From: an uncultured archaeon
Lineage (GTDB): Archaea; Asgardarchaeota; Thorarchaeia; Thorarchaeales; Thorarchaeaceae
DNA: 28,906 nucleotides
NCBI GenBank assembly: GCA_964631415.1
Contig: CAZVZC010000028.1
Span: 1-28,906 of the forward strand
Direction: 5' to 3'
Part shown: positions 430 to 26,868 of the stretch, piece by piece
Position numbering within the stretch: position 1 is the stretch's first letter
Layout: the number at the start of each line of letters is the position of its first letter
Program-made: the position numbers and the translations under genes
Notes under the pieces: model-generated
Told to the model about the DNA's origin: nothing
What the model saw: only the letters and a program-made list of their open reading frames with translations
The model's database searches: none

Positions 430-449
430 CCAAGAGAGAGCGATGAAGA

Positions 450-6654: not shown

Positions 6655-6690
6655 AATGTCCGCCTAATGCAATGCCGCGAATGCCACATG

Positions 6691-6697
6691 ATATAAA
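6691..6697. promoter_or_regulatory. Archaeal TATA box, probably shared by the divergent Ntn-hydrolase and biotin ligase genes
   Basis: ATATAAA on +, TTTATAT on -; the only strongly AT-rich motif in the ~100-bp divergent spacer. Confidence 0.55.
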
Positions 6698-6757
6698 TGC
6701 TCGTTGGGTCATGTGTACCGTCGGTCGAGCAAAACTGCTCGCCATCGCCGGGAGAAC

Positions 6758-7543: not shown

Positions 7544-7548
7544 TTGAG

Positions 7549-8427: not shown

Positions 8428-8740
8428 ACAGATCAGCAGAGGATGCAAGTGAGTACAACGATGTAGGATTCTACTGAGATGCATTGTTTCTGCACAGCTT
8501 ATGCCATTAGAGGATGGGAATGGATCTGTTCCTGTCTTTCTGCCTGCCTTCAGCAGACATTCTCTCGTCCGGTGAGCAAAAAGCATCACTGTTGCCAGAA
8601 CGCCTTCCGCTGACACTGCGGACAATGGACCTGCAATCCATTTTGGCGACATTCACTGTTGGCTGAAGCATTACGCACCACAACTGGCCGTGATTCCGTC
8701 GTTGATCAGAATCCTACTGAGAGGAAACCCCTCTCTCGTA

Positions 8741-9253
8741 TCACTTCTTCCAGATGTAGACGAAGTCGCAGAAGTCATTGCCTTGCATGAGCGTCCTGGT
8801 TCGCTTGAGACCAACCTGAGGATGAATCGCTTTTGCAGACTCGAAATCATGTTCGCAGAAACGGTGGTATCCAATATCAGTCCCCTCGAGTTGTCTGAAG
8901 ACTCTGGCATAGATGCACTCTGTAACCGTGCAGGCACACTTGTCTGAGGTTTCCTCGGTTATGGACACCTCTTCCATGTTGTTGTAGTTCAGTTCCTCCA
9001 CCCATCGTTTGATGAGCGCCTTCACATCTGTGAAGCTCTTGATCGGCCTCTTCTCAGCTCTGACTAGATTCTTGACCGACTCGACGGAGTTCCGCTCCGA
9101 CCACTTACTGACTATGGCGTCAGCCTTCTCCTTGCCCAGTACTCTCTCCATTTCACGGATGACGGCCACTTCTTTCTGATGCATGTCCAAGAAGTGATGG
9201 AATACTGTGGTTTCGATCTTGGTATCGAACTTGTCTACCTTGTGTGCGCTCAT
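8741..9253 (-). CDS. L-2-amino-thiazoline-4-carboxylic acid hydrolase family protein
   Basis: VTECIYARVF..DIGYHRFCEHDF..LKRTRTLMQGNDFCDF three-Cys signature; start MSAHK (9253) preferred over the ORF-track start 9373. Confidence 0.8.
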   Translation of the reverse strand: MSAHKVDKFDTKIETTVFHHFLDMHQKEVAVIREMERVLGKEKADAIVSKWSERNSVESVKNLVRAEKRPIKSFTDVKALIKRWVEELNYNNMEEVSITEETSDKCACTVTECIYARVFRQLEGTDIGYHRFCEHDFESAKAIHPQVGLKRTRTLMQGNDFCDFVYIWKK

Positions 9254-9563
9254 TGCCTGTCCGTCCAACAGCCATTTGCCAAGCGAACCGTACGTTTTGA
9301 GTAATAGAGATGCCGATTCGCGGCTTGAAGTCGAGCTTCGGGGTCCACTCCACACAGAATCGACCTTGGTCATGCTCGGCAGTCGTTATCAGTATGCCAA
9401 CCAATCTCACTGTCTCTCTAGTTCCAGCGATCTCTACCTAGGAAGCGGCCAGAGGGCCACAAGCCCACATACCGTCGCTGTTTCAGTGGTCTAATCGCCG
9501 CAGAAGTCTGCCACGAAGCCTTTATGCTGGTCAGGCCTTAAACCATGCGGGGTTGATTGCAGA

Positions 9564-11399: not shown

Positions 11400-11424
11400 C
11401 ATTTCGTGACGAACTGTCAGGCAG

Positions 11425-13149
11425 CTACAGGGCGAGAACCTGCCGTGTTGCTGCTGTTCTCGCCCGATGTCTAGAGAAGAGAACGGCCAGAACTAGGGTT
11501 CCCCCAGCAGCGACAGTGATTCCTGACGCGATTAGCAGGGCACCATCTGTTGATAGAGTGTGGGCCGAGATGATGAGTCGAGTGTACCCGGTGTAGTTGT
11601 TGCCCACCCTAATTGTGCAATTGGCCACAGAGAGGTCAACAGGCGACTGGAAGCTGCCCTGCATCGGCGTAGTTGTGTGTGGTGATGATACGGACAAGGA
11701 GCAGAGATGCGTTCCATCCATGGCAATCACTTCTATCTCCTCGGTGCTTCCAAGACGCGGGCTCAGGCACTCAACTCCCAAGTTGGCGGTCACCGTGGCG
11801 CCCTGATTTGTATCACCGGTGGCAGATGTGGCTACAATCGAGATTCTCGGCGTCATCTCAAGGAGGTAGTCAAAAGCTGGCATGATGTCGGTCCAGAGGT
11901 TCTCGATAGACTCAGCCACAGGGTCGAAATAGCCGAATATGTCGTGCCACTCCTCTATGTAGTGCGTCGAGTTGTCAACGATGAGTGTGAATGCCTCGTC
12001 CCTGTCCACAGCTGTGTTGTGGTAGAGCTCGAACGTGATTGGCACCTTGGTCCCCCTGTCAGCGTACATCCAGTCCTCCCACATTCCGCATCCTGTTTCA
12101 ATCATCGGCTTCTGAGTACGTGCAGATGCGAGAAACGAGCTCGACCGACCTTGATCACTGTAGAACGCCGGCGGGAGTATGCCGGTCAAGTCTTGAAGTA
12201 CCGAATAGTATAGTGCTGGCTCGGTGTATGCGCCATACGAGGTCAGGGGGAAGTATGTAGCGTTGGTTCCAGAGTGCAAAGTGTAGCCTATGGAAAACCT
12301 GTGCTGCAGGGCGAAGTCACGAAACGCTTGCGTCTCTGGCTCTGAGAAAGCATATGCTCCATGGTAAACTTGGCTCCAGGGGTCAGAAGACGACCCGGGT
12401 TCAGAACCCCAAGCCCTTGCGTAGTTCCGGTTCAAATCAACGAGGCCAATCTCGTCACAATTGATGCGTCCATCGTCATCGTCGTCGATGCCCTCGAAGT
12501 AGGAGTAAAGGTATGTGAGCACACTACCTCCATCGCTCTTTGCATACACATCGTAGGAGGAGATGAGTCCGTCACCGTTGGCGTCGTCTGCAGGGTCCTC
12601 ATCGAGAAGCCCGTCCCCATCATTGTCGTAGGGGCGAAGGTTCTTCCTGAGCCAGTAGTCATTGAGATTGACCACTCTCTCAAGTGCATCCGGGTTCATA
12701 GAGGGGATGATGTAGATCTCCTCTGTGTCAACGTACTGTGTAATCTCCTCATCAAGGCCGTAGCTGTCTAGCAAGCGTAATGCGAATCTGAGAGCCATTT
12801 CAACAGTGATTTGCTCACGGCCGTGATGTTGCGCAAGAATCAGCGTCTTCGCCTTCTGTTCTTCATTCAGCTCGTTTGTGATTCGCAGACACGTGATGTT
12901 GCGCCCCTCGTAGCTTTGGCCAATCACCCATGTGTCAACAAGACTTGGAGCGAGCGTTTCGAAACGTTGAATCTCCGCCTGCAGCTGCGATGGGGAGTGA
13001 TATTGGTCCTCATACAGAAGAGAGAAGTCCGCCCAAGTACGATTGACACTTGGCGTTTCGACCAGAGCTATGCTGAAACCCGAGTTACCAAGTGCTGGAG
13101 TGACGCCTTGGAACAAAGAAGCGAACAGGACCACCAACATTAGTGTCAA
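11425..13149 (-). CDS. Secreted, C-terminally membrane-anchored M14 zinc carboxypeptidase
   Basis: HHGRE Zn ligands, RKN, VDLNRNY, TLHSG, TFELY; DxDGDG Ca-binding-like inserts; N-terminal signal and C-terminal TM; true start may be 13176. Confidence 0.9.
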   Translation of the reverse strand: MTLMLVVLFASLFQGVTPALGNSGFSIALVETPSVNRTWADFSLLYEDQYHSPSQLQAEIQRFETLAPSLVDTWVIGQSYEGRNITCLRITNELNEEQKAKTLILAQHHGREQITVEMALRFALRLLDSYGLDEEITQYVDTEEIYIIPSMNPDALERVVNLNDYWLRKNLRPYDNDGDGLLDEDPADDANGDGLISSYDVYAKSDGGSVLTYLYSYFEGIDDDDDGRINCDEIGLVDLNRNYARAWGSEPGSSSDPWSQVYHGAYAFSEPETQAFRDFALQHRFSIGYTLHSGTNATYFPLTSYGAYTEPALYYSVLQDLTGILPPAFYSDQGRSSSFLASARTQKPMIETGCGMWEDWMYADRGTKVPITFELYHNTAVDRDEAFTLIVDNSTHYIEEWHDIFGYFDPVAESIENLWTDIMPAFDYLLEMTPRISIVATSATGDTNQGATVTANLGVECLSPRLGSTEEIEVIAMDGTHLCSLSVSSPHTTTPMQGSFQSPVDLSVANCTIRVGNNYTGYTRLIISAHTLSTDGALLIASGITVAAGGTLVLAVLFSRHRARTAATRQVLAL

Positions 13150-13484
13150 TGAAACTCTGTACTGATATTCTCTGATTGTGTTTCACCTCACGCTACCATC
13201 ATCTGTCGGGTTCTCACAATTCACGCTGGAACCGGTTGGAACGCATAGTCGTCGATTCTGAACACAGAAACTCGGGGAACCATGATAATACCGTTACTGA
13301 CGACGCAATTAGCCAGTTTGATTGTTATGTGAAGAAGCTGTTCGGCAACCCACTCGCAGTCAAATGTGGTCCAACTTTCACAGGCGGGATGGTTCTCAGG
13401 TGCACAGGATTTAATAGACATACGAAGCCCGAGTTGTTGAAGGAGTTTCAGAAATGAGCTCTGAAGCACAGTGAGATGATAGGT

Positions 13485-13886
13485 ATGAAGGGCTACTTCA
13501 CCGCTATTGAGAAAGACACTCGCAAGAACATCGATTATCGCCGCGTGTTGTACACAGGGAAACACAGCCAACTGGTGCTCATGAGTCTCAAGCCATTGGA
13601 AGAGATAGGTGAGGAAGTACACACCGACGTAGACCAGTTCTTTCGGTTCGAAGCAGGGGAAGGAAAGGTCATCATAGACGGCGCTGAGCATCGTGTCAGG
13701 GATGGAGATGTCGCTATCATTCCGTCCGGTGCCAAGCACAATGTAATCAACACCTCCAAGCAATCGGAACTGAAACTGTACACGATCTACTCGCCACCTG
13801 AGCATCAGGACAAGGTGGTGCGCAAGACCAAAGCGGAAGCCATCGCTAGTCCAGAGGAATATGACGGCAAACCGACCGAGAAGTGA
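13485..13886 (+). CDS. Cupin domain protein
   Basis: YRRVLYTGKHSQLVLMSL..EEIGEEVH..DQFFRFEAGEG..IPSGAKHNVIN..LKLYTIYSPPEH. Confidence 0.9.
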   Translation: MKGYFTAIEKDTRKNIDYRRVLYTGKHSQLVLMSLKPLEEIGEEVHTDVDQFFRFEAGEGKVIIDGAEHRVRDGDVAIIPSGAKHNVINTSKQSELKLYTIYSPPEHQDKVVRKTKAEAIASPEEYDGKPTEK

Positions 13887-14006: not shown

Positions 14007-16373
14007 TCAGCAAGACCTCTGGAACCTGCCGATGACATCATTCTGAACATCTTGACTCAGGTCTACAAAGCAAGCACTGTATCCAGCCACCCTCACCAGC
14101 AGATTCCGATATTCACTGGGGTTTGTTTGAGCGTCACGGAGAATCTGAGGGTCCATCATATTGAACTGAATGTGCATGCCTCCAAGCTCTACGTAGGACC
14201 TCAGCAGATTCACGAGGGAATCAAGGCCTTGTCCTCCAGAAACGAAGCCAGGTTCCAGCGAGAGTGTGAAAGCAACTCCGTTCGCATACGTTGCGTAGTC
14301 GATACCTGCAACAGAGCTAAGGGCCGCCGTCAACCCCTTCGAGGGGGCTCCAATTGCGGGAGAACATCCGTTGCTCAAGGGCGCGGTCGCTAGTCGTCCG
14401 CTGGGCAATGCACCAGTGAAGTATCCAAATGGTACGTGACTGGTGACTGAATACATGCCCGCAATGAATGATCCACCCCGGATGTTCTTGTGCTTCTCTA
14501 CCTCCTCACTGTAGATGCGTGCAACAAGCTGAGCGTATTTGTCTGCCAACTTGTCGTCATTGCCGTATTTCGGACCCTTGTTCAAAAGGAGCTGCCTGAG
14601 TGCTTCTTTTCCCTCAAACCCATGTCTTAGTGCATCCAACAGTTCTGGCATGCTTACTCTCTTCTGTGCGAAGACCAATCGGTCCATTGCGGCGAGAGAG
14701 TCTGCCACATCTGCCATTCCAACACCTTGGACCCCGGTGAAGTTGTACCTCGCAGAGCCTGTCGTTATGTCTCGGCCCGCCTCAAAGCAGTCTTCTACGC
14801 AAAGTGACAGCAACGGCGACGGCATCAGCTCCATGTTTGCGGTCTCAAAGCTGTTGGAGCCCTCGGCCATAAGTCCGACAAGGTAGGACACTTGTTTGCG
14901 GAACGCTTCAACAATCTCATCCATCGACTGGAATCTCGATGGGTCACCAGTTTCGACACCAAACTTCGTTCCTAATTGGACACTCTCGCCGTTGTTGAGG
15001 GCCAGCTCAAGGCACATCGCCAGATTGAACAGCGCTGCATCCGACGAAGTAAAGCTGGTCCCAAAAGGAGCCAGCTCAACACATCCGACAGTCGAGTAGT
15101 CCCTAGATTCCTCCAGACTTACTCTCTGTCTCTGCCATGACCCGACGATTACGTCGTCATTGAACATGGCGATGTTGTTCGCTCCGGATGCCACAGTTGA
15201 TGCGATTTCTTTCAACAGTCGTGGCGGACTCTTCCTATGGATTCTGACGTGCACGTTCGGTATTGGCAATGCTGCATTCTTGGTCGCTTCAAGTATTACA
15301 TAGGTCATCTCGTTTGTCGAGTCAAGCCCGTCTTTGTTGATACCTCCGATAGTCACTGCTTGAGTAGTCAAGAGGCCCTCAAAATACATACCAGCAACGC
15401 TGTCAAAGATTGGGACCAGATCGTTTGTCTTTATCCAGAGCATCTCTACAAGCTCTACTGCTTTCTCGTGATCCATCGTGCCTGACTTGACGTCTATTTC
15501 GTAGAATGGCTGAAGGTACTGGTCCATTCGTCCCATTGAAACAGCTTGGCCATCATACGCTTCTATGCTCAGGGCGAGATGAGTGAATCGAACAAACTGA
15601 ATAGCTTCGTGGAGGTTCCTTGGAGGTTTCGCTGGGACTCGTCGACATGCTTCAGCTATTGTTTCGAGTTCCTTCCTTCTCTCGACATTCTTCTCTCCTC
15701 GTGCCATGATTGTTGCCTTTTCGGCATAGCGTGTGGCGAACTTGACGACTGCCCGCGCGACTATCTCGGCAGCCTTGTAGAATTGCACCTTGGCGACAGA
15801 GGCAGGATCGGATCTATCAGCATATTCGCGGACCCGTTCCTCCGCGGTCGTCCCAATCTTGTCAAAGCCAACTGAGAAGAGCATTGGATAATTGATGCTC
15901 AAGTGACCGAATCCAGCCACCTCAGTGAGTACGAATACCGAACCAGTGTACAGAATGTCCATTATGTTCTTGGGAGTGTTGTGCTCGGCATGAGCCAGCA
16001 TCGATCTGTCGGTCCAGTATGATTCGATCTGCCCGCGAAGGATTTGGATGTCGTCGTCTGAAACCGCAACCGACCGGCGATCTCGTTTCTTCAGTTCTTC
16101 AAGCTCTGGAAGTATTCTCGCGCCGTGTGCTTCGGGATAGATGACGGCTCCTCGAGGTTTGTCCGATGAAACGCCCACGATAAGCTCATCTGGGAGTATC
16201 TGAACTGGCATGCCTTCCAACACGTGAGCAAGAGCCTTTGCCTGCCGAATCACTCTCGGCTCTTCTTCGGTCTGTTTCAGGGATTCGGTGTACAGCCGTA
16301 TCCGGTCCATGCACAAGCTGGTTGTTGAATCCAGCATGTTCCTCCGCAGGTTCTGTGTTCTGGTACCTGTCAT
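14007..16373 (-). CDS. Glycyl radical enzyme, single-Cys (PFL2/eliminase-like) class
   Basis: C-terminal LLVRVAGYS glycyl-radical loop, GCVE Cys loop, PKYGNDD and SMGRMDQYL motifs. Confidence 0.92.
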   Translation of the reverse strand: MTGTRTQNLRRNMLDSTTSLCMDRIRLYTESLKQTEEEPRVIRQAKALAHVLEGMPVQILPDELIVGVSSDKPRGAVIYPEAHGARILPELEELKKRDRRSVAVSDDDIQILRGQIESYWTDRSMLAHAEHNTPKNIMDILYTGSVFVLTEVAGFGHLSINYPMLFSVGFDKIGTTAEERVREYADRSDPASVAKVQFYKAAEIVARAVVKFATRYAEKATIMARGEKNVERRKELETIAEACRRVPAKPPRNLHEAIQFVRFTHLALSIEAYDGQAVSMGRMDQYLQPFYEIDVKSGTMDHEKAVELVEMLWIKTNDLVPIFDSVAGMYFEGLLTTQAVTIGGINKDGLDSTNEMTYVILEATKNAALPIPNVHVRIHRKSPPRLLKEIASTVASGANNIAMFNDDVIVGSWQRQRVSLEESRDYSTVGCVELAPFGTSFTSSDAALFNLAMCLELALNNGESVQLGTKFGVETGDPSRFQSMDEIVEAFRKQVSYLVGLMAEGSNSFETANMELMPSPLLSLCVEDCFEAGRDITTGSARYNFTGVQGVGMADVADSLAAMDRLVFAQKRVSMPELLDALRHGFEGKEALRQLLLNKGPKYGNDDKLADKYAQLVARIYSEEVEKHKNIRGGSFIAGMYSVTSHVPFGYFTGALPSGRLATAPLSNGCSPAIGAPSKGLTAALSSVAGIDYATYANGVAFTLSLEPGFVSGGQGLDSLVNLLRSYVELGGMHIQFNMMDPQILRDAQTNPSEYRNLLVRVAGYSACFVDLSQDVQNDVIGRFQRSC

Positions 16374-16467
16374 CGACGAGTCTCCAGAGGGTTGCTTCTT
16401 CTCAGTCTATTAAGTGATGCGAATCCAATTGCCCCTGTCAGCAGAGTTAGCAGACCGCCTTCTCATT

Positions 16468-16495
16468 CTTACTATGCTTACCACGTCATAGTAAG
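16468..16495. promoter_or_regulatory. 9-bp perfect inverted repeat (CTTACTATG-N10-CATAGTAAG), candidate operator
   Basis: Lies in the divergent spacer between the GRE and methyltransferase genes. Confidence 0.4.
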
Positions 16496-16589
16496 GCACC
16501 AGAGGACGAGTCGACGATGGCGAACAGAATAGTTGAAATAGAAACACCGCTCAAACGCAGAGGCATCCAAGAATGTCCGGTGTCCCTCC

Positions 16590-17390
16590 TTGTCGAAGGC
16601 AACAGTAGAATCCTTTGAGTACCAATGGAAGAACCTTCCTGAGGGAGATTTCCTCCTCTCCGACGAGAGGTGGCGCAAGAACGTGGACAGCTACATTCTT
16701 GATGAGCTGCAAATGACGCGGGAACGCATTCGAGGCATGAAGGTGCTAGACGCCGGCTGTGGTCAAGGGCGGTGGGCGCTGGGCTTCGAGAAACTCGGTT
16801 GCAGGGTCTATGGAATCGACATAACACAAAGTGGTGTCCAGTCCGCTCGGAGGAACGTCAAGGGCAAATTCGAGGTCGGCAGCGTGCTGGACAAGAACCG
16901 CCTTGATGCACTCTACGGCGCAGAACGCTTCGACCTTGTCTGGTGCTGGGGCGTTCTCCATCACACGCCCGACCCCAAGAAGGGGTTTGACAATCTGACT
17001 ACGCTCCTGGCACCAAAGGGCATGATTCACATCTACGTTTATGGAATCAAAGGACCCGTCAGCCGGTTTTGGAGATGGGTCTTTGGAAGGTTCGGGCTAG
17101 CCAACAAGGAACGACTAGCTAGAACCATCAGCAGAATCGGCCTTTGGCTACAGAGGACTTTCAGCAAGAAGAGCCCACCAGCCGTCGGAAGACTGCTCCG
17201 CAGGCTGTTCCCAGCGTACACGCCACATACGATCTTCGATGCCTTCAGTCCACGAATCGCCAGCGAACATACCCGGCGCGAAGTCGGAGGATGGTTCCAG
17301 TCCAACGGATTAGAAGTGGTTTTTCACCGTCCCTCGTGGGGCGGCTCCAAAACAAGCACTGATATCTGGGCGACAGGATGGAAGAAGTGA
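16590..17390 (+). CDS. Class I SAM-dependent methyltransferase, same subfamily as 1584..2246
   Basis: VLDAGCGQGRW, FDLVWCWGVLHHTPDP, LAPKGMIHIYVY, FDAFSP. Confidence 0.9.
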   Translation: MSKATVESFEYQWKNLPEGDFLLSDERWRKNVDSYILDELQMTRERIRGMKVLDAGCGQGRWALGFEKLGCRVYGIDITQSGVQSARRNVKGKFEVGSVLDKNRLDALYGAERFDLVWCWGVLHHTPDPKKGFDNLTTLLAPKGMIHIYVYGIKGPVSRFWRWVFGRFGLANKERLARTISRIGLWLQRTFSKKSPPAVGRLLRRLFPAYTPHTIFDAFSPRIASEHTRREVGGWFQSNGLEVVFHRPSWGGSKTSTDIWATGWKK

Positions 17391-17416
17391 CCGAACGCAA
17401 TGAGCCCAGGTGTTGG

Positions 17417-17602
17417 CTACTTCTGAGTCACGAAGTAGAGACGCCGGCCGTTGGGGTCTGAGGGGCTGCGTTCCTGCAGTTTCTCTCAGCAGGCGCGTTC
17501 CCGTAGCTGAGCGTCGCTGAGGCACGTTCTGAGTTCTTCTGGCGTGTAGCCGCGCTCCTGATATACCTCTTCCACCCGGCTCCAGTGGTCCTTCTCTTTG
17601 TC
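17417..17602 (-). pseudogene. C-terminal remnant of a SAM methyltransferase with an internal stop
   Basis: Frame not in the ORF track reads DKEKDHWSRVEEVYQERGYTPEELRTCLSDAQLRERAC*EKLQERSPSDPNGRRLYFVTQK*, like the E-x-H-x-ER-x-Y...RxxFVxxK tail of methyltransferases; TGA at 17486-17488; no 5' part. Confidence 0.6.
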
Positions 17603-17934
17603 TCATAGAGGGGGTGGTATAATCTCAGGAGTCTGGAACGTTATGACTGATCTTCTGCTCAAATGGAGTCTACTCCCCGTCAAGTGATTATCACGGCCTC
17701 AAATTGACGCTATTGGTCATAGGGGCCTTTCAAGACCATCTCCGTAAATCGGAGCGTGCAGTTCGTCGATACGTTCGTGCTCATTTCCACCAGTCAGAAA
17801 ACGACGCAAGCCTGTCAAACCATAAGTGGACCATTGCTCTGCGCTAACCCCTGTTCCTTGCCCACGTCACCTTGACGTGAGTGTTCAGTCCCGAATACGC
17901 GGTTCATGGTTGCAGAGCTCATCATCCACAATCC

Positions 17935-18054
17935 AGAGTGCCAAACTCCTTGCACTAACATGATGCTTACGCAGCTATGAATGCCTATTCAACGGCTTTG
18001 AGCCCTAGACAAGCCCATAGCTAGGGCCCAGACTCGATACTGCTTCAGCTGCGA
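17935..18054 (+). repeat. Conserved 120-bp non-coding element, copy A
   Basis: Collinear match to 26650-26769; the 3' block matches at 37 of 43 alignment columns (manual alignment). Confidence 0.85.
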
Positions 18055-18070
18055 ATCGGAGCAATTAAAC

Positions 18071-18520
18071 TTGAATTCAGTGTTTGACGAAAGGCGCTCC
18101 GAACTGAGTGAAAGCGAGGGGCCTTCTGAGGGGCTCTTGTCATCAACCGAGATAGAAGCGGGGGAGGGGGACCACCCTGATAGTCAAGCTGACGACATCG
18201 AGGGCAGTCCTAGACAGGAGTCTATCGAAGCTGGCCGCGAATTAGAGCATGAAGAGCCCCATTCTGACACACGCGAGGACTCTCCGAGCGAAACCGAGAT
18301 GCGTCGCGAGGAAACCGAATCTGAAGAACAGACAACGGGAGCAGAGGAGGACTGGATAGAAGATCAGGAGTCTGCTGTGTTGTCAGGTCCTGAAGTGCAG
18401 CGCCTAGAATCTCGTGAGTCTGAGGAGAGTGAGGAACGCAATGAGGAGCCGTCCAAGTCCGAGCGCATCACTTCACTCGCGCATCCGCCACCTTCAGTTT
18501 CAGTGCACTCGTCATTCTGA
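18071..18520 (+). CDS. Highly acidic low-complexity protein, probably a truncated N-terminal fragment
   Basis: About 46 of 149 residues are D/E; GGAG RBS before the TTG start; composition changes abruptly in the last ~17 codons. Confidence 0.6.
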   Translation: MNSVFDERRSELSESEGPSEGLLSSTEIEAGEGDHPDSQADDIEGSPRQESIEAGRELEHEEPHSDTREDSPSETEMRREETESEEQTTGAEEDWIEDQESAVLSGPEVQRLESRESEESEERNEEPSKSERITSLAHPPPSVSVHSSF

Positions 18521-18668
18521 GGTTCACATCAGTCAATTCGCTCTCGATACCCTGAACCCATTGTAGCTGGTTGTTCCTCGTCTATTGAAATGTCACGTCC
18601 GGCCCAGTCGGCGGCTGTGTATGCCTTTGAAACGAACATTCATATGGAACCTATGGCACCGTTGATTC

Positions 18669-18777
18669 GTAGTTGAGAGCTGAGTAGAAGCACCGCCTCT
18701 GATCAGAGGTGAGATGCTCCCATCGACTGCAGATGACTTCAGTCATATGCAGGCAATCCCACTCAGCTCTCTACTAC
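18669..18777. ncRNA. Candidate structured small RNA (cloverleaf-like multibranch fold)
   Basis: Closing stem GTAGTTGAGAGCTGAGT/ACTCAGCTCTCTACTAC (16 of 17 bp) enclosing three hairpins. Confidence 0.5.
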
Positions 18778-18840
18778 ACCAGCGGAATTCTGTCATATAT
18801 CGATTCCCAATGGGCCAGAATCAGGCTCTCGTCCGAAGAC

Positions 18841-18846
18841 TTATAT
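18841..18846 (+). promoter_or_regulatory. TATA box of the secreted-protein gene
   Basis: TTATAT preceded by purine-rich CGAAGAC (BRE-like), ~80 bp upstream of ATG 18924. Confidence 0.5.
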
Positions 18847-18923
18847 CCGCGTGAGGAGTTTCCGCACAGTGGGATGTGATGGGAGCATCTGCAGTGCATC
18901 TGTACTTGCAGGTAGATGAGAGA

Positions 18924-19586
18924 ATGAAGAGATCGTGGTTTACTCTTAGCAGCAGTATTCTTGTGCTGTTTGCTGTTATGGGCTATATGACTAATCCTGT
19001 CGCTGCCGTGTTCTTCGGAAACGACACACCGCCTTATGGATGGTCTACGACCGACCAAGCGGGCAACTTCGCGTCATGTTCGAAGGATGCAACAACAGGG
19101 GAGTGTTGGATCCAGGTCGACCCACTGAGTTGGCCTTGGTGGTATGAGGGCGGAACTTGGTCAGCTGCAGTAATCGGAGCAGTGTACACAACGGACCAAT
19201 CAGTGACAGCAACTTGGTACTTCCTATCATCTTGGGACCTTGACTATCGACTGAATTGCGGATGGGGCGGAAGTGTGACGATTAGCGTCGTCTATCGTGT
19301 CTACAACGCAAACCAAGAGAGAATTGCGGACACAACTGCTTGGAGCAAGACTTGGGTTGGTCCTGCGTTCAGTTGGGATGATTGGGATGAAGAGATATCA
19401 AAGGATATCTACAAGTCCTTCACATTGGACCTTAGTAATGGGCAGACCTACTATTTCGCTGTTGGACTCAAGGTGTGCATCAACAACGACTCTGGAGCCA
19501 TCGATGTCAATGCCAATAGTGACAATAGTGAACCTGCTCTGCTCACGGTGGACAGTATCACATGGACTTTAGTCCCGCCTGAGTAG
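18924..19586 (+). CDS. Secreted Trp/Asp-rich, probably beta-rich protein of unknown function
   Basis: MKRSWFTLSSSILVLFAVMGYMTNPVAA signal peptide; 4 Cys; no C-terminal TM anchor. Confidence 0.8.
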   Translation: MKRSWFTLSSSILVLFAVMGYMTNPVAAVFFGNDTPPYGWSTTDQAGNFASCSKDATTGECWIQVDPLSWPWWYEGGTWSAAVIGAVYTTDQSVTATWYFLSSWDLDYRLNCGWGGSVTISVVYRVYNANQERIADTTAWSKTWVGPAFSWDDWDEEISKDIYKSFTLDLSNGQTYYFAVGLKVCINNDSGAIDVNANSDNSEPALLTVDSITWTLVPPE

Positions 19587-19597
19587 CAATGACTAGT

Positions 19598-19636
19598 GAC
19601 GCTGAGAACATCGGTTCCAGCGTCCTCCCCCTTTCC
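19598..19636 (+). terminator. Stem-loop plus pyrimidine tract after the secreted-protein gene
   Basis: GACGCTG(A)GAAC-atcg-GTTCCAGCGTC followed by CTCCCCCTTTCC. Confidence 0.55.
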
Positions 19637-19640
19637 AGTG

Positions 19641-19650
19641 GATATATATC
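19641..19650 (+). promoter_or_regulatory. TATA box (GATATATATC) for the ABC operon
   Basis: AT-alternating box immediately after the terminator, ~110 bp upstream of the ABC ATPase. Confidence 0.45.
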
Positions 19651-19756
19651 GTGCTCAGACTGTAGCTGGCGAGCCTTGATTGCACAGTCTATCGAGGACG
19701 TGGTATCATAGTTGCATCGACATGCAACCTAGTCGTGGATTGGACGGTAACGGGTC

Positions 19757-20725
19757 ATGAAGTCAGTTGGTTCGAATATCATCAAGATTGATGGACTGGT
19801 CAAGGACTATCTCTCGATTGGCCGCGCCGGAGCTCGTCCGAAGCTATCGAGAGTGAGAGCACTATCAGGAGTGCAGGGAGTCTTCGACGGGGGGATACTC
19901 GGTCTTGTTGGACCGAACGGTGCAGGAAAGAGCACTCTGATTCAGATAATGGCAGGGGTGCTCAAGGCCACAAGAGGCTCTCTGACCATCTTCGACATGG
20001 ACTCCTGGAGGTCCACGAAGAACATCAAGAAACGAGTGGCCTTTCTCATGGAGGAGCCGGAGTATCCTCCTCTTGCAGGATTGCGCTTCCTGAGGTACGT
20101 TGGGGAACTCAGGGGCATGGACCGGATTTCAGCAGAGCGTCACGCACGGGATGCTCTTGAGCGTATTGGGATGGCTGACAGTGGCAGGCGTTCGATCACC
20201 TCGTACTCTGCAGGGATGAGGCGGAGACTGGGCATTGCGACTGCATTCATCGGCGACCCCGCGTTGATAGTGCTGGACGAGCCTGCAAAGACCCTCGATC
20301 CCCAAGGAAGGCATCTCCTGAGCAGTCTCATATCTGATGCACACCGTGAGCATGGGACCAGCTTCGTGATATCGAGTCACATACTCTCGGATCTGGAGCG
20401 CATCTGTACCGAGGCGTGGGTCTTGCATCGCGGCGAGTTCGTTGTCAAGGGAACGATCGCAGAGATATCTGAGCGCTTCAGACCAGACCTGTTTGTGGTT
20501 GAGGTCGACCGGCCCCAACTGATGTTCGAGAGGATGAGCGAACTGGTCCCTGGCCGTGTCACAATCCAGGGGCATCGACTGACAATACAGGGCGACCCTG
20601 AGCAGGTTTCAAGGATGGTTTCGGACACTGTCGCCGCACTGGGGCTCGTTCTACGCAAGTTCGAGCCGGCCATGGGCGAACTCGAGCGAGTACTGTTCGG
20701 AGGGGAGTCAGATGCAGTCGGATAG
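19757..20725 (+). CDS. ABC-2 type exporter ATP-binding subunit
   Basis: Walker A GPNGAGKS, signature YSAGMRRR, Walker B LIVLDEP, H-loop SSH. Confidence 0.95.
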   Translation: MKSVGSNIIKIDGLVKDYLSIGRAGARPKLSRVRALSGVQGVFDGGILGLVGPNGAGKSTLIQIMAGVLKATRGSLTIFDMDSWRSTKNIKKRVAFLMEEPEYPPLAGLRFLRYVGELRGMDRISAERHARDALERIGMADSGRRSITSYSAGMRRRLGIATAFIGDPALIVLDEPAKTLDPQGRHLLSSLISDAHREHGTSFVISSHILSDLERICTEAWVLHRGEFVVKGTIAEISERFRPDLFVVEVDRPQLMFERMSELVPGRVTIQGHRLTIQGDPEQVSRMVSDTVAALGLVLRKFEPAMGELERVLFGGESDAVG

Positions 20726-21629
20726 GCGCTCCTTCCGGACACTTCCGAGAGCAATTGTCCAGACGGTGCACGAACTGAGGGTTGTTTCTTCTCTTCTCAT
20801 GAGAGCGAATCTGAAACGATTGCCTCTCTTGTTCCTTGTCCTCGCTTCACTTGTTTCCCTGATACCGTTCCTCAACACGTTCGCATGGCAAGCAGGCAAT
20901 CCCGAGGGGGGAATCCTGGAGCATGCGTCTCGGAGGGACTCGCCTGAGTTCACGATATACACCAGTGCAGAGGTCATCTCACTGACCATTCGAGGCCTCG
21001 GATACTTCACCAATCTTGCTGTGTTCTACGTCGTGTTCCTTGGCCTGTCGGACAGGTTGATCCGGGAGGACCGAACAATCATCACTCTGCCGGTGGGCAA
21101 TGGCGTGCTGGCCATCGCGAGGCTTCTTGCAGTGATAGTCCCGGTCCTTCTGGCCCGGGTGACACTTGTCCTACTCGGTCTCGGAGCCTACTTGGTATTG
21201 CTCTCCGGGTCCAGCTCTGGTTTCGTGGTCCAGTTCCTCTTCACCGTGTGGGCACCCGTGCTTGTGGTGCTGATACATGATCTCTTCCTCTATACAGCAG
21301 TCTTCCTTCTTGGCCGCATCCTCCGGAACCTGATTCTGGGAGTCGTTGCAGCCTATGCCATCGTGTTTCCGACTCCGATCAACGACTTCTTGTACAATGG
21401 CATATTCGCGAGGGTTCCGGGAGGCGTACTCGACTCAGAAACTGCTGTACTGTACCTGTTCTACTCGGTGATGCAGCCGAGCCAGTACGCCTATACTGGT
21501 TGGCAGGCCGCCCTCGGCACCGATTTCGCGACAACGCAGCTGGCCGGGGTATTCTCACTGTGGGTCCTCGGGGCGGTATTACTCCTGCCTGTTGCCGTGG
21601 CGGTCGTCCGAAGGTTCACGAGGGGCTGA
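20712..21629 (+). CDS. ABC-2 type permease-like membrane protein
   Basis: About 6 TM segments, REDRTIITLPV motif, overlaps the ATPase stop. Confidence 0.75.
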   Translation: MQSDRRSFRTLPRAIVQTVHELRVVSSLLMRANLKRLPLLFLVLASLVSLIPFLNTFAWQAGNPEGGILEHASRRDSPEFTIYTSAEVISLTIRGLGYFTNLAVFYVVFLGLSDRLIREDRTIITLPVGNGVLAIARLLAVIVPVLLARVTLVLLGLGAYLVLLSGSSSGFVVQFLFTVWAPVLVVLIHDLFLYTAVFLLGRILRNLILGVVAAYAIVFPTPINDFLYNGIFARVPGGVLDSETAVLYLFYSVMQPSQYAYTGWQAALGTDFATTQLAGVFSLWVLGAVLLLPVAVAVVRRFTRG

Positions 21630-21632
21630 TTG

Positions 21633-22430
21633 ATGGCCCGCTACTTCCATGGCATCATGAAGACTCTCTACAGAGGAGTCTTGCTGGTTCGTGTGTCAGG
21701 CGTGGCCATGTCCCTGCTTCTCTCACTTGTCTTGCTCACGCTGTTCAGGTTGCCGCTTGTCTACGTGGTCCAAGAGTCCACCAGCACTCTCGACTTCATC
21801 ATCGGTTCGCTTCAGTTTGAGTTCTTCATGGGCGGGAGTCTTCTCATCAGTCTGCTGATACTGTCTGCAGCAGTCTACAGAGTACTGCTATACGAGAAAC
21901 AGCTGAGGGGAGATGCACAGATACTTCTCCAGCCCGTCAGCGCCGTCTGGCTCTATGGGACTCGCTACATTCTCCTCGTGGCTTTGATATCTCTGTACGG
22001 CCTCATTGTCTTCGTGAGCTACTGGCTATCGTTTCTGGTCATCGCGGACACCGCGGTTCTTGAGTTCGGCATCCTTGCGACGCTGGTATCGGTCTTCTCT
22101 GGTTTCATGATGCTTTCCGCAGGCCTCCTTCTGTTTGCAGCTCCAATGAACGCCCTTCAAAAGGGGCCTCTGCTTCTTCTACTCGTGGTACTCAGCAATC
22201 TCTCTCTGTCACAGCAGAGTAGTGCACTGAGTGGGTTCCTCGGTTTCTTCATACCATCTCTACGGCCGTGTTTCTCAGAGGGCGTCATGGACATCTTGGA
22301 CCAGGCCAATGGTGAAACTATCGAGTTCTCCCTTATGCCGTTCGGACTTCTGATTGCTCTGATCCTTGGATCACTCGCACTCGCCTATACTTCGTTGAAG
22401 CACACCGAGATACTGCGACAAGGTTCCTGA
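21633..22430 (+). CDS. ABC-2 type permease-like membrane protein
   Basis: About 6 TM segments, EKQLRGDAQILLQPVS motif, starts 3 nt after the preceding permease stop. Confidence 0.75.
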   Translation: MARYFHGIMKTLYRGVLLVRVSGVAMSLLLSLVLLTLFRLPLVYVVQESTSTLDFIIGSLQFEFFMGGSLLISLLILSAAVYRVLLYEKQLRGDAQILLQPVSAVWLYGTRYILLVALISLYGLIVFVSYWLSFLVIADTAVLEFGILATLVSVFSGFMMLSAGLLLFAAPMNALQKGPLLLLLVVLSNLSLSQQSSALSGFLGFFIPSLRPCFSEGVMDILDQANGETIEFSLMPFGLLIALILGSLALAYTSLKHTEILRQGS

Positions 22431-22977
22431 GTGTGATGGTGCACCCCAAGCGGGAAACCTACGATTGTTTCGCATCTGGCCAGCGTATCTAGTTTCGGAA
22501 GGTGCATTCAGTGAACACTAGCTACGCTTGGGCAGCACTGTTCCTAGGTCTGGATGCAGGATTTTTGCCGAGCAGCCAAGAAACTAGGATGGAACCTGAG
22601 GGCGAAGGAGTTCAAGGGGGTCAGACTGGCGGTCTAGGACTATGACTGTTTCTTGAGAAACCAGAGAGGTCTGCAGAAGTTATGCACATCGACAACGGGT
22701 TCGTTCCTGTGAAAGCCAGATTGACTTCTACCAGAGTCTGCTGCATTTCGCGGCTTAAGAAAGCAGGTCACAGGTCTCCGGACAGCCCGTGCGCAGTGCC
22801 GGAATCATCTCACGTGCACCTATTCTGACTGAAACCGAGTGTGCTAGGCTAAGGCGAGGTGTTCGCCATCTAAGCCACACGCTTGTGAGAATACCTTACT
22901 GGGTATTGCCTGAGCACCAAGGAGTGCCTACTGCAGAAGGACCTGCCTTGGCGCTTCAAGATGCGGTTGAGTCGGCC

Positions 22978-23211
22978 ATGGCCATGGAAACCGAAAGACG
23001 TAGCCGTGACTGCGACTCGTTCACCGAGGAGAAGTCTGGCCCGGGCTACCACAGGGGAGAATGCCTGCACGAGAAACGGAACTCGGTCTCGCGGGACGAC
23101 GAGCCCACGCGTTTCCTCCCCATCTATCAGCCGGACAACCCGACACAGTGTCGCTTCTTCAGTCCAAACAAGAAGAGGCCAGCATGTGTCCAGACCACAC
23201 TAGACTTCTAG
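22978..23211 (+). CDS. Small Cys-containing protein (degenerate Zn-finger-like) with C-terminal QTTLDF
   Basis: RDCDSF...GECLH...QCRFFSP; start at MAMETE within ORF 22789..23211. Confidence 0.4.
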   Translation: MAMETERRSRDCDSFTEEKSGPGYHRGECLHEKRNSVSRDDEPTRFLPIYQPDNPTQCRFFSPNKKRPACVQTTLDF

Positions 23212-23216
23212 GTCCT

Positions 23217-23313
23217 GTCACTCACCCACTCCACTTCGACTATTCCGCAAGCGTCCGAAGAGGCATGTCGTCACGCACCCACTCCACCTTGACAACTCCG
23301 TAAGCGTCCAAAG
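23217..23313. repeat. Tandem 44-bp imperfect direct repeat (period 53 bp)
   Basis: 23217-23260 vs 23270-23313, 37 of 44 identical. Confidence 0.85.
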
Positions 23314-23548
23314 CCTTACCCATGCCTCGTTTCCTGCAAATCCGCAGGACTCTTGCGGAATAGCTGCGGCAACGTAGTTGCCCCAGTTTCTTTTTGACTT
23401 CCTGCCTGAACTGCTTTGTCCAGAGCCATTTCTTCCTGACAGGAAAGACGATGACACTGCCGCGCTGCTCATGCGCGAAGACGAAATCAAATCCATTTTC
23501 GAGTATGTCCCTCATCTTGTCGACGGGAGGATTGTCACATCCTGACAT
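23240..23548 (-). CDS. Hypothetical basic protein
   Basis: Open frame with a GGAGTGTG RBS before ATG 23548; protein-like composition. Confidence 0.55.
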   Translation of the reverse strand: MSGCDNPPVDKMRDILENGFDFVFAHEQRGSVIVFPVRKKWLWTKQFRQEVKKKLGQLRCRSYSARVLRICRKRGMGKALDAYGVVKVEWVRDDMPLRTLAE

Positions 23549-23721
23549 GAAGACCGCCACACTCCTAGGTCAGGCTATTCAGCATGGGGAATGATCTCTG
23601 TCCCACCGACCAAGCCACCATGCATTCTGTCAAGACTCAAGAGAATAGGAATCTTGCCCGGCCGTTAGCGGGCCTCGTGAAACCGCCACACTCTTAACAC
23701 TGAAGACACAAACTGTCCGTC

Positions 23722-24480
23722 ATGCCTCGTGTGCTGACAGTCGAGTGGGGAGGAAGAGGAGAGCCCAGCTCTGCCCGTGAGGCCGACAGGCTGGCCCTCT
23801 CACTCGGTCCACGCAAGAGGCTCTCGGCGAAGGACCTTGCTCAGGTCAAGGAGTGGAAGCGTGAGAGGCTGACACTGAAGAGCAGTCAGGACGGAGGCAT
23901 CGGGCCGAGCCGAGCGATCATGTACGAAACCTCATGGGCGGTCCTCTACAGCCCGCAGAGAGTTGTGTTCCGAGAAAGCAGCTTCAGCGCGAGCGACAGC
24001 ACCGAAGAGCTTGCACCTTGGCAGATACCGGTTTCACATATGCAGATAGTCGGCGAGGTCGCGAGGGGCCTCTTCGGCGCACACCGCTTCAAGGGCGTCA
24101 GGTTGTACGGCGACCGCCACATAGACAGCGGTGCGAGGTTGCATCTTGTGACTCTGAGGGAGAAGTCAAGCAGAGAGAAGAGGGCGATGGTCTTTGACGA
24201 GGCGGACGACGCCAAGCTCATGGTACTCCTGGCACGAGTCTTGGACAAGACTGAGCTTGAGACAGTGTCCGACGAGGTACTTGTGCCTAGGGTCGCGTAC
24301 AAGAGGGCGCCCTCAGGGGTGTCGGGACCAACGGCTCTCATGGACCTAGCCAGAGAGAACAGCATGAGGCAGAGGTACAGGCTGGACCGGCTGAAGGCAC
24401 AGGTGAAGAGGGGGCGCGAGGCCAAGGTCCTGATTGACCGCATCGAGAGAGAGGCGAAGTCTTCCGGAATCACACCATGA
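23722..24480 (+). CDS. Hypothetical protein
   Basis: 252-aa ORF with coding-like codon usage and a TTAACA TATA-like box ~25 bp upstream. Confidence 0.7.
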   Translation: MPRVLTVEWGGRGEPSSAREADRLALSLGPRKRLSAKDLAQVKEWKRERLTLKSSQDGGIGPSRAIMYETSWAVLYSPQRVVFRESSFSASDSTEELAPWQIPVSHMQIVGEVARGLFGAHRFKGVRLYGDRHIDSGARLHLVTLREKSSREKRAMVFDEADDAKLMVLLARVLDKTELETVSDEVLVPRVAYKRAPSGVSGPTALMDLARENSMRQRYRLDRLKAQVKRGREAKVLIDRIEREAKSSGITP

Positions 24481-24526
24481 CGTAGCATGCTCGTTATCCC
24501 TGTAGGAGCTTATTAGGCACAGGACG

Positions 24527-24620
24527 ACCTCAGGTCCGTGGTGCGGGCTCAATAACTGCTCTTGTCATCTCTTCCAAGACCCCTGTTTCTGAAACGCATG
24601 AGCCCCACCACAGCTGAGGT
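24527..24620 (+). promoter_or_regulatory. Structured leader whose 3' arm pairs the GAGGT(G) RBS of 24630..24854
   Basis: ACCTCAG/CTGAGGT, GTGGTG/CACCAC and GGGCTCA/TGAGCCC stacked helices plus two short inner hairpins. Confidence 0.5.
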
Positions 24621-24629
24621 GCATGTGGT

Positions 24630-24854
24630 ATGGAACAGTCGAGCAAGATGAACGAGAAATGGATGTCTGAGAAGTACGACGAGCGACAGCTGAGAGCGAT
24701 AGTTGAGGTCCTTGAGAGCTTCGACACGCAGGAATGGGACGTGGACTTGGACGAGCTTGGTCTATGCGATGCTTCCGCGGATGTGGCATCAGCCCTGAAG
24801 ACCGCCAGAGAGGTCCTTCAGATGAAGGAGGCGTGCAAGTGGATTGCCCATTAG
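24630..24854 (+). CDS. Small acidic hypothetical protein
   Basis: GAGGTG RBS 8 nt before ATG; its stop overlaps the next ORF. Confidence 0.6.
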   Translation: MEQSSKMNEKWMSEKYDERQLRAIVEVLESFDTQEWDVDLDELGLCDASADVASALKTAREVLQMKEACKWIAH

Positions 24855-25371
24855 GTTCTTCGATGATGTACAGGAGGCCATCGACGACATCTACAGCCGA
24901 CGTGCGGAGGCTGACTCTGTGATACTTCGCTGGCAGTGGGCACTCCCGAGAGCGGGGACATACGCCATCCGTATCGCCGACGGCGTGTTAATCTATACTA
25001 AGATCGTGGAGGAACTGAAGGCGCCACACCTGCGGGGCTTCGTGTTCGGGAAACACTACAGGATAGTTTCGAACGTGATTTCAAACGGTGTTGGGATTCT
25101 CCGAACGGAATCGATTACTCGTGCCTCACAGCTGCCGGTGCTCAAACATGCGGTCGATCGGTTGGGCCGCCTTCAAGAGATAGTGGAGATGATTGCCTCG
25201 ATGAAGTGGAAGCCTGTTTCAGAGGACGAACGCGAAATCATACTTCATCTGCACAGACAAGGACATACTCTCGGGGAGATTACATCCCTGCTTTGGGCCG
25301 AATTGGGCATAGCTCGCCGGCCGTCAACCGTAAAGGGCGTCATCGGAAGAGGAGCCGGGACTGGCAAGTAG
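24844..25371 (+). CDS. Probably chimeric ORF: virus/plasmid-type N-terminal fragment fused in frame to a small HTH protein (25201..25371)
   Basis: C-terminal VSEDEREIILHLHRQGHTLGEITSLL..RRPSTVKGVI resembles IS30/HTH_38-type HTH; an internal GGAG RBS precedes ATG 25201. Confidence 0.55.
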   Translation: MPIRFFDDVQEAIDDIYSRRAEADSVILRWQWALPRAGTYAIRIADGVLIYTKIVEELKAPHLRGFVFGKHYRIVSNVISNGVGILRTESITRASQLPVLKHAVDRLGRLQEIVEMIASMKWKPVSEDEREIILHLHRQGHTLGEITSLLWAELGIARRPSTVKGVIGRGAGTGK

Positions 25372-25675
25372 TGTGTTAGCTAGGCTCAACAGAACCTTCA
25401 AAACGTACTATCTTTGCTCGCTAGTCGGCTGAAAGGACGAGTAGAGTGAGATAAGCCATGCCAGACAAGAGATCTGAGCAAGTCCAGAGAAAGCGCGAGG
25501 AGCTCACATCAATCTGTTTCAGGGACTCAGTATACACACATACCCACGCGATGCACAAGCTAGTCATTGAGCCCAGTAGGGGACCTTGCAGCCTGTGTGT
25601 TGTCGTGCCTATCATCGCGGCCCTCCATAAGAAGCCGTCCGGTCAGTCTACTGACCAATGTGCATCCAATTGGGA

Positions 25676-25958
25676 GAAGAAGCACAGGCGGTGCTTTCTC
25701 CTGATGCACTTTCTGAGATTCCGTTTGTTGTCTGGGCGAAGGAAGGAAGAGAATACGGCCTAGGAGCAATCATGATCACTCAACAGCCCGGTGCAATCCC
25801 GACGAACTCCTAAGTCAAGGTGACAACTTCTTCGCTTTCCACCTGGTTTCCAGTTCAGATTTGGCGCGTTTCAGAAGGGCTAACGCGCACTACTCTTCTG
25901 ATATCCTAACCGCCATCGTGAACGAACCCATCAAGGGCAACTGCTACTACTGGTCTTC
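25676..25958 (+). pseudogene. Frameshifted C-terminal remnant of a HerA/DUF87-family ATPase
   Basis: EEAQAVL..PFVVWAKEGREYGLGAIMITQQPGAIP then a 1-nt deletion at ~25799-25800, continuing DELLSQGDNFFAFHLVSSSDLARFRRANAHYSSDILTAIVNEPIKGNCYYWS (Walker B, KEGRKY-like and TQQP motifs). Confidence 0.8.
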
Positions 25959-26119
25959 CCCGAAGCTCTCTTTCCAATGAGGGCAAGACTGAGAAACTTG
26001 GGGGATTCTCCTGTCGCTTGTTCGAAGTAGTACTTGACTTCTTCCAGCTCCCTTTTCCGTCCGGCGAAGAATCTCCGGTTTCTTATCGGTTTCGTGAAGT
26101 CATAGGGATTTGTTGGCAC
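25949..26119 (-). pseudogene. N-terminal remnant of an archaeal AAA/STAND-type ATPase
   Basis: NPYDFTKPI..FFAGRKRELEEV..LALIGKRASGKTS, truncated immediately after Walker A; TATA-like ATATAA ~30 bp upstream. Confidence 0.8.
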
Positions 26120-26520
26120 GTCTATTCATATTGGGTTACGAAGTTTTTCTTATATGCATTGCACATTACCAACCCGTGTGTGAAACGGACGAAGGCATGA
26201 CGCCCACCGGTTGCCGGCTATCTGGAGGTTTCTGGTGGCAGTGCTTTCCAACCTTACATGCAAGGGAGCCTATGCCGTGGTGCCTGTTTTCATTCCTGCT
26301 CTCATGGAAGCTTATTATGTCATCCCACGTGTCGTTTCTGGTTTATCAGGTCCAAGGTAATGTTTCTGAAACAAAGGAACTGCGCATCGCTTCTCCCCTT
26401 TAAGCGCAATAGATGAAATCTTAGCATCGGCTCTGAATGTAGTCCTAATCACTCTGACGCATCTGAAGCATCATCGGCAGAACCAATGCCAAAGACCACG
26501 TCTTACTATTGGATTGCTGG

Positions 26521-26542
26521 CTTGGTGCTCTGGGGCACCAAG
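26521..26542. repeat. 8-bp perfect inverted repeat CTTGGTGC-N6-GCACCAAG
   Basis: Directly visible; lies ~110 bp upstream of conserved element copy B. Confidence 0.5.
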
Positions 26543-26649
26543 AACGCTTGGGAACTTCCGCCATGATCGGCAAAGGTAAGCGTATGCACGAGTTCAATCG
26601 AACTCCGAATCGAAGGGCCCAGGGACGTCAAGTTTTTCATTTGCGGCCG

Positions 26650-26769
26650 AAAGTGCTGAACTCCGTGCATCCATCTGGCACTCTGACCGCTATCAATACC
26701 GTTTCGATGATTTTCGTAGTCATGAGTGCCCAATAGCTAGGGGCAAGACTCGATACTGGTTCACTACGA
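26650..26769 (+). repeat. Conserved 120-bp non-coding element, copy B
   Basis: Collinear match to 17935-18054. Confidence 0.85.
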
Positions 26770-26868
26770 GCTTGGAGGCAGAAGGTGTGGTTTTGACTTC
26801 TCACGAAGGGCATATGACGAACCATGCACCAGCCAGTGTTGTCGTCTAAGGTAGGTGAAGTCCAGACT

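Follow-up and report, generated by a model that had tools for sequence, protein, structure and literature searches.

A nested-hairpin element beside a secreted-protein gene in a Thorarchaeales genome: candidate small RNA or young DNA palindrome?

Upstream of a secreted-protein gene in an uncultured archaeon of the Thorarchaeales lies a short stretch of intergenic DNA that folds into a tightly nested set of hairpins and shares short exact boxes with the start of the neighbouring gene's leader. What sort of entity is this – an RNA, a group of DNA sites, or a by-product of rearrangement – and is it linked to the gene beside it? An earlier note, drawn up from the letters alone, saw a cloverleaf-like RNA that would act upon the secreted-protein gene, either as an antisense regulator (or alternative-fold switch) transcribed from the plus strand, or as a decoy transcribed from the minus strand. 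We followed up this proposal in the window (the whole stretch of 28,906 nt analysed here; it makes up contig C28 of a 2.16-Mb MAG with 85% completeness), in the remainder of the genome and among relatives. The explanation that we prefer, tentatively and at something short of even confidence, is that the element is a strain-specific, single-copy gene (or gene core) for a small structured RNA of ~105-110 nt, with the minus strand slightly favoured. The features on which the argument turns are collected in Table 1.

Table 1. Features of the element and its surroundings (positions are those of the window; a dot marks features given no strand).
Feature	Position	Strand	Evidence or remark
Retained fragment of large protein (about aa 306-433; tblastn match aa 304-439)	18086..18470 (tblastn match 18080-18487); breakpoint 18470/18471	+	tblastn, contig alignment
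Nested-hairpin element	18669..18777	. (- slightly favoured)	closing stem around three hairpins, 109 nt
Closing stem, 5' arm	18669..18685	.	16/17 paired with 18761-18777
Hairpin 1	18696..18709	.	perfect 14-nt palindrome CCTCTGATCAGAGG, 14/14 self inverted match
Box copy 1, GATG-N4-CATC	18712..18724	.	exact reverse complement of 18878-18890
Hairpin 3, CTGCA.ATGAC-TTCA-GTCAT.TGCAG	18727..18752	.	fold and sequence
Closing stem, 3' arm	18761..18777	.	followed by ACCA at 18778-18781
ATATAT, weak TATA-like box	18795..18800	-	hexamer 3.2x enriched upstream of genes; putative promoter
CTTATAT, likely TATA box of secreted-protein gene	18841..18847	+	TTATAT 7.7x, CTTATA 4.6x enriched upstream of genes
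Leader start, AGTGGGAT, GATGGGAGCATCT, CATCTGCAGT	18868..18895	+	inverted copies of three element pieces
Secreted Trp-rich protein gene	18924..19586	+	translation; signal peptide from MKRSWF; homologues
ABC ATPase and two permease genes	19757-22430		after the secreted-protein gene; Pfam
C-terminal fragment of same large protein (about aa 1234-1337)	25063..25368 (tblastn match 25057-25368)	+	tblastn; right edge of replacing segment

Architecture and stability of the element

The pairings described in the earlier note were all recovered. The closing stem joins 16 of 17 positions, with a single T.T mismatch, and is laid out as 5 bp, the 1x1 mismatch and 11 bp with zero bulges. Within it the arms CCTCTG and CAGAGG (at 18696 and 18704) are present and, together with their centre, form a loop-less perfect palindrome of 14 nt; the GATG-CTCC-CATC hairpin stands at 18713-18724, and the third hairpin, of 5+5 bp with a TTCA loop, is present as described. 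The label "cloverleaf-like", by contrast, has to be given up: the element is a closed three-hairpin junction and no tRNA cloverleaf. Folding places the four helices in proper nesting, with the closing stem bracketing the hairpins exactly. The loops are of neither the GNRA nor the UNCG type. On the plus strand 38 of the 39 pairs are Watson-Crick; the minus strand forms 45 pairs in total, including five extra G.U pairs worth 7 kcal/mol. Inspection of the sequence after the element revealed no oligo-T terminator on either strand, and between 18669 and 17606 the minus strand holds no ORF of at least 50 aa.

Comparison with shuffled sequences bears out the proposed structure. A stretch of 118 nt folds at -51.9 kcal/mol on the plus strand (z -6.98, equalled by none of 200 shuffles) and at -58.9 kcal/mol on the minus strand (z -6.35). 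Measured against the genome itself – 53,654 windows of 120 nt taken from the plus strand at a step of 40, with folding energy regressed on G+C – only 9 of the 53,654 lie as far below the regression as the plus-strand fold, and none of these plus-strand windows lies as far below it as the minus-strand fold. This puts the element within the top ten of the genome for structure. The closing stem on its own is unremarkable: 25 inverted repeats with at least 14 matches within 200 nt occur in the genome, among which this stem ranks third, and chance would supply about one 16/17 repeat at such spacing per genome. The rarity lies in the nesting of the four helices, an arrangement not expected of independent DNA palindromes. 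Nesting and extreme stability argue for selection on the fold, be it in RNA or in single-stranded DNA. The fold is equally a property of double-stranded DNA, because the plus-strand pairs are Watson-Crick with one exception and one hairpin is a palindrome without a loop.

Promoters and the boxes shared with the leader

The TATA box assigned by the earlier note to the secreted-protein gene stands up well: CTTATAT at 18841 agrees with the hexamers that this genome has in excess upstream of its genes, which for the long ORFs are TTAATA, TAAATA, TTATAT and similar. The second box, ATATAT at 18795-18800, from which a divergent transcript had been proposed to start, is indeed TATA-like in its enrichment, but weaker than CTTATAT. 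It lies ~20-25 nt upstream of the element as read on the minus strand, and the start expected from it (18772-18778) lies within the stem, a few bases from its end. For the plus strand the sole promoter candidate is TCATATG at 18640; its hexamer CATATG is represented at 0.6x and has no promoter likeness. Transcription of the secreted-protein gene probably starts near 18868, and the likely start codon, ATG 18924, is supported by homologues that align from residue ~16-28. These homologues are 25-45% identical and come from 10 of the 85 family genomes; among 5.8 billion proteins the secreted protein had one distant match.

The earlier note had also drawn attention to three internal pieces of the element that recur, as reverse complements, just downstream of the TATA box. 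All three matches are exact: 13 of 13 nt between 18712-18724 and 18878-18890, 10 of 10 between 18726-18735 and 18886-18895, and 8 of 8 between 18756-18763 and 18868-18875. The 13- and 10-nt sites nevertheless overlap on the leader (18886-18890) and are mutually exclusive as targets. With dinucleotide shuffles (downstream 140 nt), an inverted match of at least 13 arose in 5 of 2000 and summed inverted matches of at least 31 in 3 of 2000. The motif GATG-N4-CATC is found two times within 270 nt, where 0.016 would be expected. The two copies of the 13-mer are inverted relative to each other; 166 bp separate their centres, and the proximal one spans about +10 to +22 relative to the putative transcription start. 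In the minus-strand reading of the element the 13- and 10-nt boxes stand in swapped order relative to the leader; element and leader thus hold one 18-19-nt unit in circularly permuted forms and opposite orientations, with no collinear target site. A more extensive inverted duplication of promoter plus leader was considered and rejected, local alignment recovering the 13-mer alone at a score within reach of the shuffles. The position of the shared boxes, beside the presumed start site of the cassette, argues for a link to the secreted-protein gene.

What might that link be? The exact 13-, 10- and 8-nt complementarity to 18868-18895 invites the reading that a plus-strand RNA, or a long 5' UTR switch, pairs with the leader of the secreted-gene mRNA, and a co-fold of the two does employ the 13- and 8-nt pairings. 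The net gain is a mere -4.6 kcal/mol (-74.1 together versus -69.5 kcal/mol separately), because all three leader-matching segments are tied up in helices within the element. When 18660-18945 is folded as one molecule the element closes on itself with zero long-range pairing; the 13- and 10-nt sites cannot pair together; the complementary region of the leader stops short of the ribosome-binding site and the start codon; and upstream on the plus strand no promoter-like box is to be found. We consider antisense action of this kind very unlikely, and infer that the decoy version of the earlier note, in which the minus strand is transcribed, fits slightly better.

The same boxes could act without any RNA. 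The palindromes would in that case be operators for dimeric DNA-binding proteins, the pair of 13-nt boxes would allow repression or looping, and the RNA fold would be incidental. Such DNA-level operators would account for the exact inverted duplication of the 13-mer with one copy just past the TATA box and start of the cassette, for the scarcity of GATG-N4-CATC in the genome (125 copies in 2.16 Mb) and for the perfect 14-nt palindrome without a loop; a second intergenic stretch of the island, 23217-23363, also has 17-nt motifs in direct and inverted orientation. They would leave unexplained why four different palindromes and a 17-bp outer inverted repeat should be nested. Moreover, no regulator gene is recognisable beside the cassette, and the box was not found at other promoters of the genome. 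We regard operators as an unlikely account of the element.

Relatives and known classes

The element is single-copy in the genome. The pattern of its closing stem is absent from all 399 other Asgard genomes searched and from viral contigs, and blastn searches of 60 relatives and of phage records returned nothing or chance matches of 16-30 nt. A covariance model built from the single sequence gave two weak partial matches in 86 family genomes (26.7 and 22.6 bits), each with one hairpin missing and with mismatched stems, which we judged to be chance. The closing-stem pattern met four matches in JGI metagenomes; these are long palindromes unrelated to the element, in which the 11-mer occurs by coincidence. 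Among public runs the element is present in one sample alone (X1-X4, probably the source), where an independent 351-nt contig of run X1 reproduces 18560-18866 with zero differences; none of the public runs with this DNA is catalogued as RNA. In the same run the interval 18369-18448 of the window exists in a second variant, with 5 differences in 80 nt and at similar depth, so at least two related strains coexist in the probable source sample. The earlier note had suggested a look for the same RNA upstream of homologous secreted-protein genes. The upstream regions of 12 homologues are non-syntenic, unrelated in sequence and without a comparable element, and no locus homologous to that of the element came to light in these searches.

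Other very stable folds exist in this genome. They cluster on contigs C13 (3889-3998, 4891-4994, 7700-7850 and 14700-14880) and C30 (17140-17370), rank with the genome's most structured windows, and include a perfect 18/18 inverted repeat with its arms 74 nt apart. Long-stem elements elsewhere in the genome (C13:3889-3998, C13:4891-4994, 23240-23363 of the window, and others) were examined as possible family members and rejected, since they share neither sequence nor architecture with the element.

The 17-bp terminal inverted repeats, ~109 nt apart and located in an island, bring to mind a MITE or the relic of an insertion-sequence end. The earlier note had named multiple copies with target-site duplications as the mark of a MITE, and this can be set aside: the element has a single copy, its flanks (TTGATTC and ACCAGCG) are unrelated and show no target-site duplication, the genome and metagenome searches just described yielded no further member, and no transposase lies nearby. 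We give this origin almost no weight.

Nor did the element match a known class of RNA in the searches made. Rfam 15 assigns no family at gathering thresholds anywhere in the window. With E values up to 10 allowed, the sole Rfam match within 18400-19000 is to sR43, at 16.3 bits versus a gathering score of 45. sR43 is a C/D-box sRNA model. Such RNAs carry a C box (RUGAUGA) and a D box (CUGA) near their ends, a K-turn and C'/D' boxes in ~50-70 nt; here the alignment is weak (E 0.13), the boxes are degenerate, and the element is 109 nt long with a 17-bp terminal stem. Hammerhead and other ribozymes likewise received no support in the Rfam search of 18400-19000, and the Y RNA family of Rfam has no match at the element. 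Ro60 (the TROVE domain, PF05731), the partner protein that a Y RNA or YrlA-like RNA would bind through a bulged stem, has no match in this 85%-complete genome, while control genomes were positive.

ARAGORN found no tRNA, either by default or with introns allowed; at a threshold lowered to 80% it made a single call, which we judged spurious because its cloverleaf is mismatched and interrupted by an "intron" of 144 nt. The ACCA after the element follows a 17-bp helix rather than the 7-bp acceptor stem of a tRNA. Processing as a circular RNA or archaeal intron depends on a BHB motif, in which two 3-nt bulges on opposite strands flank a 4-bp helix; the closing stem has no bulges, and this candidate was dropped.

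A further candidate was the integron attC site, a type of recombination site reported in Archaea, including Asgard. Like attC, the element is an imperfect palindrome with a length in the range of 57-141 nt; it forms a hairpin structure beside a promoter-less-looking cassette in a variable region. An attC site has RYYYAAC at its 5' end and GTTRRRY at its 3' end, stands in an array and is served by IntI. Here the 5' end has GTTGAGA and the 3' end has TCTCTAC, so that the order of the core boxes is reversed; no array of sites and no integron integrase accompanies it, and a search for tyrosine recombinases (PF00589) was negative in the 85%-complete genome and positive in all 14 control genomes. 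The assignment was rejected.

The island, and the nature of the element

The context of the element is itself informative. The ORF upstream of it, which appears as an acidic gene of 149 aa, has no match among proteins of similar length. When a 67-aa stretch was searched among longer proteins, two proteins of 1,335 and 1,337 aa came to light with 96-97% identity: P0005 and P0006, the intact forms, from the ENA sediment assemblies ERZ27247687 and ERZ27247880, respectively. Their N-terminal region is acidic, and they end in a LAGLIDADG-like domain. Alignment shows that the "acidic gene" is a fragment of this giant LAGLIDADG-domain gene, which is intact in related sediment populations, and the mapping leads us to re-label it accordingly as a gene fragment. 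In the sediment runs X7 and X8, 18300-18470 is matched at 96-99%, and from 18470 on the sequence is unlike. The C-terminal piece of the protein turns up beyond the cassette, there fused to 73 new codons (ORF 24844-25371). The remainder of the large protein has no tblastn match anywhere in the genome, and no fragment of its missing middle was found inside 18471-18923.

Judged by these alignments, some 6.6 kb (18471 to ~25060) has replaced the middle of the giant gene. Besides the element, the replacing segment contains the genes for the secreted protein, the ABC ATPase and two permeases, and several orphan ORFs; the element lies about 200 nt (198 nt) inside the left junction, and the left (18471) and right (~25060) junctions share no terminal repeats. 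Upstream of the acidic fragment, 17883-18095 is a diverged duplicate of 26592-26811, which precedes a HerA/VirB4-like ATPase gene; it thus seems, from sequence similarity, that the fragment acquired the 5' flank of that gene. A fragmented giant gene with a duplicated 5' flank marks the island as a patchwork of recent rearrangements. The stretch from 17.4 to 28.7 kb is absent from congeners. One of these, G003, shares 1-13884 of the window and a methyltransferase gene (91% protein identity), and nothing of 17400-28700. The pyruvate formate-lyase-like gene at 14007-16373 is missing from the 40 kb of G003 (G003:C4) that is syntenic, and the methyltransferase that adjoins it (compared over 14007-17414) is inverted there; the break in synteny therefore begins before the island. 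Within the island, 23217-23363 is a second repeat-rich intergenic stretch with a 44-nt direct repeat (84% identical), and 23240-23256 pairs with 23347-23363 as a 16/17 inverted repeat, 90 nt apart and at about -45 kcal/mol, unrelated in sequence to the element.

Rearranged DNA can gain palindromes through mutation, and a critical issue is whether the element is simply a product of this process. Template switching or fold-back repair during rearrangement of the island could have left nested quasi-palindromes and inverted copies that have yet to decay. The stems are almost purely Watson-Crick, including the loop-less palindrome; the short inverted copies are non-collinear, permuted and crowded into 170 nt; the breakpoint where the sediment relatives continue with unlike sequence is close by, and the large gene lies in two fragments 6.6 kb apart, behind a duplicated 5' region; and neither a homologue nor a promoter or terminator of good quality was found. 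All of this accords with a mutational by-product. That explanation demands, however, three or four independent palindrome-forming events within 109 nt, with perfect nesting as the outcome. Moreover, the element stands near the top of the whole genome for structure, whereas the other rearranged parts of the island hold nothing comparable except 23240-23363. We take a by-product of mutation to be a serious possibility, albeit one that we would not bet on.

A strain-specific island that resembles a decayed mobile element also suggests a functional origin at the level of single-stranded DNA: the element may be a relic, for instance of a single-strand origin, a priming site, a hairpin of the oriT type or a recombination site. 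The parent would have been a degraded integrated element that encoded the HerA/VirB4-like ATPase and the giant LAGLIDADG-domain protein. A fold equally strong on either strand and built from Watson-Crick pairs is what hairpins in single-stranded DNA should look like. Yet the window has no recognisable gene for a replication initiator, relaxase, transposase or integrase, the search for tyrosine recombinases was negative, the other junction has no matching structure, and the element sits inside the 6.6-kb replacing segment, outside the backbone of the older element. An origin of this sort is in our view improbable.

We return to the small RNA. Its preferred form is that the element was selected for its fold and belongs to a horizontally acquired secreted-protein/ABC-exporter cassette. 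Transcription would run, by a slight preference, on the minus strand from ATATAT, divergently from the cassette promoter at 18841; the minus strand is slightly favoured because that box stands at a suitable distance and because of the five extra G.U pairs, with their 7 kcal/mol. The RNA so made would fold into the closed three-hairpin junction and would carry, in the same sense, AGUGGGAU, CAUCUGCAGU and the GAUG-GGAG-CAUC hairpin that open the mRNA leader, and might compete with that leader for a factor that recognises the boxes. Alternatively the boxes may be DNA operators shared by two divergent promoters. Transcription, its strand, both promoters, the start sites and the regulatory link to the secreted-protein gene are all points that we infer. 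Against an RNA count the loop types, the weak promoter likeness of ATATAT and its expected start inside the stem, the lack of terminators, the permuted boxes and a breakpoint ~200 nt away. Indeed the near-absence of G.U pairs on the plus strand, the loop-less palindrome, the unclear promoter and terminator, the permuted boxes and the rearranged location fit palindromes at the level of DNA, which may be functional (operators, or a relic single-strand origin) or merely mutational. A still more ambitious version of the small-RNA reading – a new riboregulator that travels with an archaeocin-like secreted-protein/ABC-exporter cassette, the divergent RNA titrating or sharing a factor with the leader – strikes us as highly doubtful.

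Comparison with known systems is instructive. In Methanosarcina, Haloferax and Sulfolobus, dRNA-seq has revealed lineage-specific intergenic sRNAs. The element shares with them a length of ~100 nt, an intergenic location, a single copy, the lack of a family, and a place beside the promoter of a possible target with short exact matches to the 5' region of its mRNA. It departs from them in that archaeal sRNAs are defined by detected transcripts, whereas the element is known here as sequence; and it is far more structured than is typical, has no oligo-T terminator and has no relatives even in its genus. The minus-strand RNA also recalls the bacterial decoy RNAs CsrB and RsmZ in carrying the GGA hairpin of the leader (GAUG-GGAG-CAUC). 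It differs in having a single copy of the motif rather than many, and the hairpin in the leader lies off the ribosome-binding site of the accepted start; moreover, we know of no CsrA-like protein in archaea.

The lesson of the locus is mainly a cautionary one: a highly structured element with exact boxes and no relatives is, from its letters, indistinguishable from a young DNA palindrome. A more concrete gain is the map of gene replacement, with a giant LAGLIDADG-domain gene split by a 6.6-kb cassette. To our knowledge RNA-based regulation in Asgard archaea is experimentally almost unstudied. Should the element be transcribed, Asgard archaea would have a further small structured RNA specific to one lineage, tied to a mobile secreted-protein/exporter cassette; and if the RNA does mimic the leader, it would represent a control circuit based on RNA mimicry in the archaea closest to eukaryotes.
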